IMG/VR virus record: IMGVR_UViG_3300027749_000034
Reading direction: 5' to 3' (one strand)
DNA length: 64,000 bases
Origin: a virus
Lineage: Duplodnaviria > Caudoviricetes
The notes under the pieces were generated by a model. It made no database searches, was not told the origin of the DNA, and saw nothing but the letters and a program-made list of their open reading frames with translations. Shown in pieces: positions 28,461 through 29,157 of this stretch. Made by a program: the position numbers and the translations under genes. How positions within the stretch are numbered: position 1 is the first letter of the stretch; every line of letters starts with the position of its first letter.

Positions 28461-28576
28461 AGGCTAAACTTGCCGAGTTTATTGATAAACTAGAAATAGT
28501 TGCAATAGAAATGGAAAAAATTAAAGCACAGCAAAACGACTTAATAAAAATGGTTAAAGATAAATTTAAAAAATGA
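28415..28576 (+). CDS. small coiled-coil hypothetical protein
   Basis: Heptad-like ORF overlapping the mini-DnaE start; start codon uncertain. Confidence 0.4.
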   Translation: MDKHNNATGDRFVELEAKLAEFIDKLEIVAIEMEKIKAQQNDLIKMVKDKFKK

Positions 28577-29157
28577 ACTTGCCTGACGTAGACATTGACT
28601 TTGCAGATAGAGAACAGGTACTTAAATTGTTGCCGCATATACCTGCGACACAAAAGTCCAACCAAGCAACCCAAAAGCACAAAACAGGAGTGTACTTTCA
28701 TCCTGTGCCAGTAAACCCTTTTACTGGTTGGTGCGACATAGATTATAAAGAAGCAGAAGCATTGGGATTTTTTAAAGTGGACTTGCTTAATGTAAGTTTG
28801 TACAATGGAATCCAAAGTAAAGAACATTTGGATCGACTAGCCAACCAGGAGCCATTATGGGATCTGCTACTACAGGACGACTTTGTAAATCTGTTATTTC
28901 ATTTGAACGGGCATGGAGATATTCTCCGGAAGACCCAGCCGACTTCCGTGGAACAATTGTCTGCGGTCCTAGCAATGATACGCCCGGCCAAACGCTATCT
29001 GATTGGGAAGCCATGGACGACGATTATGAAGGAAGTATGGACGAAGCCAGAGAGTGGTGATTACTTCTTTAAGAAGAGTCACGCAACAGCCTATGCAGTG
29101 GCCATTGTGGCTCAAATGAATCTGATCTGTGAAAAGATCAGTTATGGATACAGTTAA
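28573..29157 (+). CDS. minimal DNA polymerase III alpha (DnaE)-like palm/fingers protein, 194 aa
   Basis: PDVDIDF, KHKTGV, GFFKVDLL, LAMIRP and YFFKKSHATAYA occur in DnaE order. Confidence 0.8.
   Translation: MNLPDVDIDFADREQVLKLLPHIPATQKSNQATQKHKTGVYFHPVPVNPFTGWCDIDYKEAEALGFFKVDLLNVSLYNGIQSKEHLDRLANQEPLWDLLLQDDFVNLLFHLNGHGDILRKTQPTSVEQLSAVLAMIRPAKRYLIGKPWTTIMKEVWTKPESGDYFFKKSHATAYAVAIVAQMNLICEKISYGYS

Follow-up and report, generated by a model that had tools for sequence, protein, structure and literature searches.

A predicted C-terminal unit of a split, minimal DnaE-type DNA polymerase in the replication gene cluster of an uncultured freshwater phage

The 194-amino-acid reading frame and its surroundings

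The DNA analysed here is a stretch of 64,000 nucleotides (the window) from the IMG/VR record IMGVR_UViG_3300027749_000034 (Duplodnaviria; Caudoviricetes). It is part of the genome of a freshwater phage that has not been cultured, and a 107-kb contig from a metagenome of the Joint Genome Institute (JGI; sample 3300009151) matches it at 99.99% identity. An open reading frame (ORF) on the plus strand at 28573-29157 starts with ATG and encodes a protein of 194 amino acids. We read this protein as the C-terminal unit (C-unit) of a split, minimal alpha subunit of DNA polymerase III (Pol III alpha), comprising the second half of the palm and reduced fingers, on the basis of the ORF itself, its match to the protein family phrog_11778, its structural model and the ratio of nonsynonymous to synonymous substitution rates (dN/dS). 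A preliminary description of the window had pointed to five DnaE motifs arranged as in DnaE, and all five were located in that order: PDVDIDF (residues 4-10), KHKTGV (35-40), FKVDLL (67-72), MIRPA (135-139) and KKSHA (167-171).

The match to phrog_11778 ('DNA polymerase', 197 positions) had an expectation value (E) of 2e-63 and aligned residues 5-188 with profile positions 8-194, and the family of full-length DnaE, phrog_405 (1190 positions), was matched at 1.8e-8. With phmmer, Mycobacterium tuberculosis DnaE1 was retrieved from the PDB in three collinear pieces (E 9e-4). The C-unit was 38-51% identical to its orthologues in phages RaK2, PA5oct, Atu_ph07 and Phosso, and at most 51% identical to that of any isolate. 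No cultured phage was matched when the locus was used as a megablast query, and relatives were reached only by protein-level searches. GenBank and RefSeq entries for Phosso, PAC2 and RaK2-like phages already annotate the protein as DNA polymerase or DnaE-like. As the profile, phmmer and structure matches concur, the motif set exceeds chance.

The AlphaFold model of the C-unit, calculated from a 90-sequence alignment, had a predicted local distance difference test score (pLDDT) of 96.4 and a predicted template modelling score of 0.88. The top 19 PDB matches found by Foldseek were all C-family polymerases (best E 2.8e-4). Alignment of the model to DnaE and PolC with VIA-align gave Z scores of 9.0-9.6 over 188-192 of the 194 residues, at a root-mean-square deviation of 3.4-4.0 Å and within residues 398-784 of the Escherichia coli enzyme; the 16 best chains were all DnaE or PolC, and the best unrelated fold reached a Z of 3.4. 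As modelled, the C-unit has the palm and fingers fold of Pol III alpha.

Residues were mapped onto E. coli DnaE (dnaE from NC_000913.3) using hidden Markov model (HMM) profiles built from orthologues together with a landmark alignment. Conservation was counted in 90 divergent C-unit representatives (27-57% identical overall) and in 17 sequences of the N-terminal unit (N-unit) introduced below. The HMM alignment covered E. coli residues 398-419, 597-641 and 753-767, and C-unit residues 97-140 corresponded to 597-641. In the HMM mapping and by landmarks, the PDVDIDF strand (28582-28602, plus strand) is the counterpart of E. coli PDFDVDF (P400-F406), with D5 at the position of catalytic D401, D7 at that of catalytic D403 and D9 at that of D405. 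The preliminary description was right that the catalytic triad is kept, and right about K68 and D70, but it had labelled D7 and D9 as the catalytic pair of the strand, which is D5 and D7. The D405 position is occupied by Asp in DnaE and by Asn in PolC (PMC3919608). Residues K68-V69-D70 (28774-28782, plus strand) align by landmarks with K553-F554-D555, that is, with the conserved lysine and the third catalytic aspartate, and H36 aligns with H511. In the fingers, R137-P138 (28981-28986, plus strand) correspond in the HMM alignment to R639-P640 of the 'FRPG' motif, and K168-S169-H170 (29074-29082, plus strand) correspond by landmarks to K758-S759-H760. In E. coli, H760 is the presumptive steric gate against ribonucleotides, and S759 tunes the selectivity for base and sugar (PMC8485763); H170 would be the presumptive steric-gate histidine of the phage protein. 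Conservation was close to complete for the catalytic strand (D5 and D7 in 89/90 each, D9 in 87/90), H36 (88/90), K68 and D70 (both 90/90), R137 (89/90), P138 (90/90) and H170 (88/90); S169 was kept in 70 of the 90 representatives. The C-unit terminates 24 residues past H170, and everything beyond the proximal fingers is gone.

The C-unit gene is tightly packed between its neighbours. Upstream, the TGA stop of a small ORF (28373-28576, plus strand) overlaps the ATG of the C-unit in the sequence ATGA. This ORF encodes 67 amino acids when read from its first start, is called with 53 amino acids on contigs from JGI and Logan, and has a copy of 49% identity in G002, a metagenomic genome of 285 kb (86% complete) that is the closest large relative of the window. 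No obvious Shine-Dalgarno sequence was seen before the C-unit start. The overlap suggests that the small ORF and the C-unit may be translationally coupled. Further upstream, a gene at 27771-28460 (plus strand) encodes a protein of 229 amino acids (phrog_11058, 5.5e-62) with an N-terminal C2H2 zinc finger (Pfam zf-C2H2, 7.8e-4, below the cut-off). In PAC2, Phosso and G002, too, a C2H2 gene precedes the C-unit; the two are adjacent in PAC2, and ORFs intervene in Phosso. It is pure speculation that the C2H2 protein might assist a thumb-less polymerase core by binding DNA. On the other side, a convergent gene of 124 amino acids (29154-29528, minus strand; phrog_11637, 4.4e-32), to which no function was assigned, overlaps the 3' end of the C-unit by 4 nt. 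The phrog_11637 gene is likewise convergent and downstream of the C-unit in Phosso, PAC2 and G002 (44-84% identity), although in G002 an insertion of about 870 nt separates it from the C-unit.

That primase and helicase genes lie beside the C-unit, as had been described before, was borne out. A helicase of superfamily 2 of the UvsW type is encoded at 25307-26764 (plus strand; Pfam ResIII, DEAD and Helicase_C; phrog_16) and is syntenic in relatives, a DnaG-type (Toprim) primase at 30398-31366 (plus strand; phrog_47, 2.1e-28; Pfam Toprim_2, 5e-4) and a DnaB-like replicative helicase at 31549-33069 (plus strand; Pfam DnaB_C, 1e-17; phrog_19, 7.1e-67). UvsW on one side and primase/DnaB on the other flank the C-unit in all relatives checked (Phosso, PAC2 and G002). 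A family-B polymerase was found over the cut-off in G002, and none among the nine large ORFs scanned in the window. A scan for promoters and terminators returned no more sites than in shuffled sequence. Other genes of the window encode tail sheath, terminase, ribonucleotide reductase and RNA ligase. The window also carries genes for a 514-amino-acid protein with collagen triple-helix repeats (16948-18492, minus strand; Pfam 2.2e-30) and for a 689-amino-acid S8 subtilase (51915-53984, plus strand; 1.6e-37).

The separate N-terminal unit of relatives and its predicted fit to the C-unit

The triphosphate-binding GxGRGS motif of DnaE was found neither in the C-unit nor in any other open frame of the window, in agreement with the preliminary description, and tblastn detected no N-unit homologue in the window (best E 0.5). 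The same description had proposed that a half carrying GRGS might be encoded elsewhere as a short ORF. When the complete genomes of Phosso and PAC2 were scanned with the DnaE profile, a second small ORF matching profile positions 362-436 was found in each (E 1.9e-10 and 2.4e-8), at a distance from the C-unit of 224 kb in Phosso and 44 kb in PAC2. These N-units have about 170 amino acids and share the C-terminal end ...VWGVGRGSSVASYVLFLIG.H.V.S..Y.LD..EFL(N/K)-stop. The N-unit passes the gathering score of Pfam PF07733 (DNA_pol3_alpha), with 38.6 and 36.9 bits against a threshold of 23.9. The N-unit profile covers residues 317-392 of E. coli DnaE (E 3.8e-8) and the C-unit starts at 398, which places the break between 392 and 398. 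In PAC2 (L139:4847-6981), the N-unit lies two genes upstream of a clamp-loader-type AAA+ ATPase; the genes that follow the N-unit encode a protein of 113 amino acids to which no function was assigned, a co-chaperonin of the Cpn10/GroES type and this ATPase.

A separate N-unit of about 170 amino acids with an invariant GVGRGSS was present in all eight complete isolate genomes that were checked individually, and also in G002, whose C-unit is 83% identical to that of the window and is separated by about 200 kb from the N-unit (P0002). The GVGRGSS motif was kept in 17 of 17 N-units. Among the records of cultured phages, single-sequence tblastn found the C-unit in 96 and the N-unit in 88, with near-identical counts per genus. 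Four of the apparent exceptions, Slicko01, Salicola phage SCTP-2, Ralstonia phage RsoM2USA and Stenotrophomonas phage CM1, all proved to have an N-unit when searched by profile (E 9e-18 to 2e-40). The spacing between the two units spans from about 4 kb in RsoM2USA to more than 200 kb. As Alishewanella phage vB_AspM_Slicko01 has a genome of 141 kb and carries both units, about 11 kb apart, the split mini-DnaE extends beyond jumbo (>200 kb) genomes. Scanning of metagenomes for the N-unit yielded 34 loci, none of them from sample 3300009151, and G001, a 40-kb fragment that was the record nearest to the window among those searched, had no match to PF07733.

A homologue search covering 1.8 billion representatives, with clustering at 50% identity, yielded 423 clusters of the C-unit family, of which 272 had E <= 1e-10; nearly all members were 185-215 amino acids long. 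The family was also found in over 570 IMG/VR stretches. Among the 150 best representatives listed, a single one was fused: P0098, a protein of 375 amino acids in which an N-unit, a linker of nine residues (DNKEGIYNI) and a C-unit follow each other in one open frame (L128:1066-2193, plus strand, on a 2.4-kb metagenomic scaffold of the European Nucleotide Archive with 25% GC). The model of P0098 had a moderate pLDDT of 70.7, with residues 1-78 and the linker poorly defined. It aligned to DnaE and PolC with Z scores of 14-15.3 over 280-292 residues, within E. coli residues 270-773, and the next folds were nucleotidyltransferases of the Pol-beta type (such as CCA-adding enzymes, MenT and Cid1) at Z <= 3.7.

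The C-unit of the window was co-folded with the G002 N-unit, P0002, and the pair scored 0.90, compared with 0.01 for the best of three controls. Of 78 solved complexes, 51 reached that mark, and so did 2 of 108 mismatched pairs. The runs agreed in at least 91% of their contacts, the pLDDT of the partner was at least 78, and the interface placed the PDVDIDF strand (C-unit 4-11) against the GVGRGS segment (N-unit 130-143). The two chains are halves of a protein that has been solved whole, so the high score may stem from resemblance to DnaE structures, and the N-unit used was that of a relative; the co-fold supports binding of the modelled chains without proving it. Co-occurrence, the natural fusion, the co-fold and the location of both genes in replication clusters together indicate that the N-unit and the C-unit are halves of one enzyme. 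The earlier proposal of a split polymerase held as far as the separate GRGS-bearing N-unit in relatives is concerned. It did not hold for the PHP domain, which it had assigned to the missing half: the partner has no PHP domain, and none was found in four related genomes.

Selection, likely activity and role

The comparison of dN/dS across orthologues suggested in the preliminary description revealed purifying selection, with a median of 0.107 against the window copy (61 orthologue pairs). An identical C-unit protein was present on seven contigs of independent assemblies, with neighbours unchanged. Contigs from the RNA libraries of four freshwater studies covered the gene with about 95% identity; one of them, 599 nt long, spans 28528-29098. 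As DNA can be carried over into such libraries, this coverage is no proof of transcription. A competing reading takes the C-unit to be what is left of a full-length dnaE after decay, or an assembly or gene-calling artefact that hides a full gene, an intein or an intron. The small size of the protein and the absence of the GRGS half from the window could be taken in its favour. It is opposed by the dN/dS of about 0.1, by the recurrence of the protein and its gene order on independent contigs, by the uniform length of about 195 amino acids across 96 isolate genomes and 423 clusters, by the conserved flanks with a start/stop overlap on one side and a 4-nt overlap on the other, and by the complete relatives, in which no other Pol III alpha module was found. 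We regard a remnant or artefact as hardly credible; the dN/dS, the independent contigs, the constant length and the packed flanks refute it. Neither loss of the aspartate triad in orthologues, nor decay, nor an assembly error, each of which had been named beforehand as speaking against a genuine small polymerase unit, was seen.

The near-invariance of the active-site residues argues, at the level of sequence, against decay and also against a decoy role of the C-unit. An inert structural subunit or decoy with the shape of DnaE, which might for instance bind parts of the host replisome, has little positive support, as the host-interaction domains of DnaE are missing. The residues of catalysis and those that face the substrate are kept in 87-90 of 90 C-units, as is the GVGRGSS of the partner in all 17, whereas inactive homologues usually lose such residues, and the regions contacting beta-clamp, tau and epsilon that a decoy would need are among the missing parts. 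Such a role is very improbable. Of the repurposed minimal nucleotidyltransferase envisaged in the preliminary description, the decoy variant is unlikely given the invariant catalytic residues, while a repurposed role is compatible with the data. That the steric gate and the finger motifs are kept speaks for an enzyme that would use deoxynucleoside triphosphates (dNTPs) and face a template.

These observations can be combined into a proposed mechanism. The C-unit alone would constitute half an active site, with the metal-binding aspartates D5 and D7, D70, K68, the FRPG arginine R137 and the KSH helix with H170. The N-unit would bring the triphosphate-binding GxGRGS loop and the helices that precede the Asp strand in DnaE. 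Pairing of the PDVDIDF strand with the GVGRGS strand would then complete one Pol-beta-type palm of about 360 amino acids without PHP, thumb, clamp-binding and OB domains. The heterodimer would form in vivo and be catalytically active, and the conserved steric gate and fingers lead us to infer that it would use dNTPs on a primed template. It might act as an accessory polymerase beside a family-B replicase, in primer extension, on one strand or in repair, as Iyer et al. proposed (Iyer et al., 2021).

With a probability that we put at about 80%, ORF 28573-29157 encodes the C-terminal unit of a minimal C-family polymerase of the DnaE type that T4-like 'group 2.2' large phages make from two genes. 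Several observations weigh against this assignment. No Pfam family picked up the C-unit, and PF07733 gave no match to it even at E 0.1. Compared with E. coli DnaE, the spacing from D401 to H511 is reduced from 110 to 31 amino acids (about 79 shorter), and the stretch missing there is what we take, from the domain map of DnaE, to be the thumb; the spacing from R639 to K758 is reduced from 119 to 30, so that about 89 amino acids of the fingers are gone. Searches of Phosso, PAC2, Slicko01 and G002 found neither the PHP domain (PF02811; control positive in 14/14 genomes) nor the HhH module (PF14579, HHH_6; control positive in 11/14). The loss of the thumb region, part of the fingers, PHP and HhH bears on how the minimal core would grip primer-template DNA and proofread.

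The partner raises two further points of this kind. For the genome of the window itself, a shared-word look-up with P0002 gave its best match (9 of 44 words) 91,042 nt past the end of the window, about 126 kb downstream of the C-unit; judged by these shared words, the N-unit of this genome would most likely lie there. Moreover, the N-units have an invariant glutamate where E. coli DnaE has R390 (17/17; E166 in P0002, L092:1498-2004, minus strand), followed by F-(I/L) and, in 16 of 17, by a terminal basic residue. R390 is presumably a ligand of the dNTP triphosphate in DnaE; if this role holds, nucleotide binding by the split enzyme may differ from that by DnaE. Finally, the literature searched contained no biochemical or genetic test of the split polymerase family, and the split enzyme is absent from a survey of bacterial polymerases of 2026.

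The R390 exchange also bears on whether the pair is an active nucleotidyltransferase that is not a template-copying replicase: a short-patch primer extender that hands over from the DnaG-type primase to the family-B enzyme, a polymerase that tolerates the modified DNA of the phage, or a template-independent terminal transferase. Consistent with such a specialised enzyme, the processivity parts of DnaE (thumb region, clamp-binding, HhH and OB) are all gone, the nearest large relative has a complete family-B replicase, the C-unit gene lies near a primase gene, and past DnaE and PolC the fused model comes closest to non-replicative Pol-beta nucleotidyltransferases. The finger motifs that face template and sugar, FRPG and KSH, are nevertheless nearly invariant, and a template-independent enzyme would have no obvious need of them. 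We consider the specialised enzyme unlikely; it differs from a split minimal DnaE-type polymerase in role, not in identity. Somewhat less doubtful, and still tentative, is the idea that the pair represents a distinct class, a thumb-less, clamp-independent and non-proofreading heterodimeric C-family polymerase with a job of its own in the family-B replisome. This job might be the extension of DnaG primers before hand-off, or the copying of modified (7-deazaguanine-type) phage DNA, and the invariant change of R390 to glutamate would then reflect altered nucleotide handling.

All bacterial chromosomes are, to our knowledge, copied by C-family polymerases, whose size and many domains make them difficult to take apart. 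With about 360 amino acids in two chains, a natural core that keeps the catalytic residues would reveal the minimal needs of C-family catalysis, and the split polymerase would also tell us the part that a second polymerase plays in a T4-like replisome. Members of this widespread family occur in phages of E. coli, Klebsiella and Pseudomonas that are open to laboratory work. If the core is ancestral-like, as Iyer et al. (2021) suggest, it would define the minimal requirements of C-family catalysis.

Comparison with known C-family polymerases

The closest known system is the split minimal Pol III alpha that Iyer et al. (2021; Viruses 13:63, PMC7824862) predicted in jumbo phages of group 2.2, where, according to the passages on this system, it accompanies a family-B polymerase. 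There, as in the relatives examined here, a C-terminal unit binding Mg2+ and template (phrog_11778) is encoded apart from an N-terminal unit binding the nucleoside triphosphate, and the phages concerned are described as carrying family-B polymerase, UvsW, DnaB and clamp loader. A T4-like set is also found in our case, with UvsW, primase and DnaB in the window, the family-B polymerase in G002 and the clamp loader by the N-unit of PAC2. The C-unit is an orthologue of their C-terminal unit, so that an enzyme of this kind was already published in 2021 and our additions are incremental. Beyond those passages, they comprise the P0098 fusion, the finding of the two units together in a phage of 141 kb, the exact place of the break with the extent of the deletions, the retained steric-gate histidine and the glutamate at the R390 position.

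Bacterial DnaE (E. coli 2HNH; Thermus aquaticus 3E0D and 4IQJ; M. tuberculosis DnaE1 5LEW) shares with the split form the Pol-beta-type palm, D401/D403/D555, K553 and D405, as well as the collinear FRPG and KSH motifs; the structural Z scores are 9-9.6 when the C-unit is aligned and 14-15 when the fused protein is. It differs in being a single chain of about 1160 amino acids, as opposed to two chains with about 360 in total, and the identity is 17-25%. Unlike DnaE, the split form is without PHP, thumb region, beta-binding/HhH, OB and tau-binding domains, its fingers are mostly trimmed, and R390 is replaced by glutamate. The structural match to PolC of Firmicutes (3F2B/3F2C) is similar (Z 9.5-9.6 for the C-unit and 14.8-15.0 for the fusion). 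However, PolC has asparagine at the position of E. coli D405, where the split family has aspartate (87/90), a signature of DnaE, and the identity to PolC is 12-15%.

In cyanobacteria, the intein-split DnaE is likewise a C-family polymerase made from two distant genes. An intein-split reading was rejected for the phage enzyme, since no intein sequences flank the break. Unlike the cyanobacterial halves, those of the phage enzyme meet within six DnaE residues with no extra domain at the split point, and the two chains would therefore join by non-covalent assembly rather than by trans-splicing.

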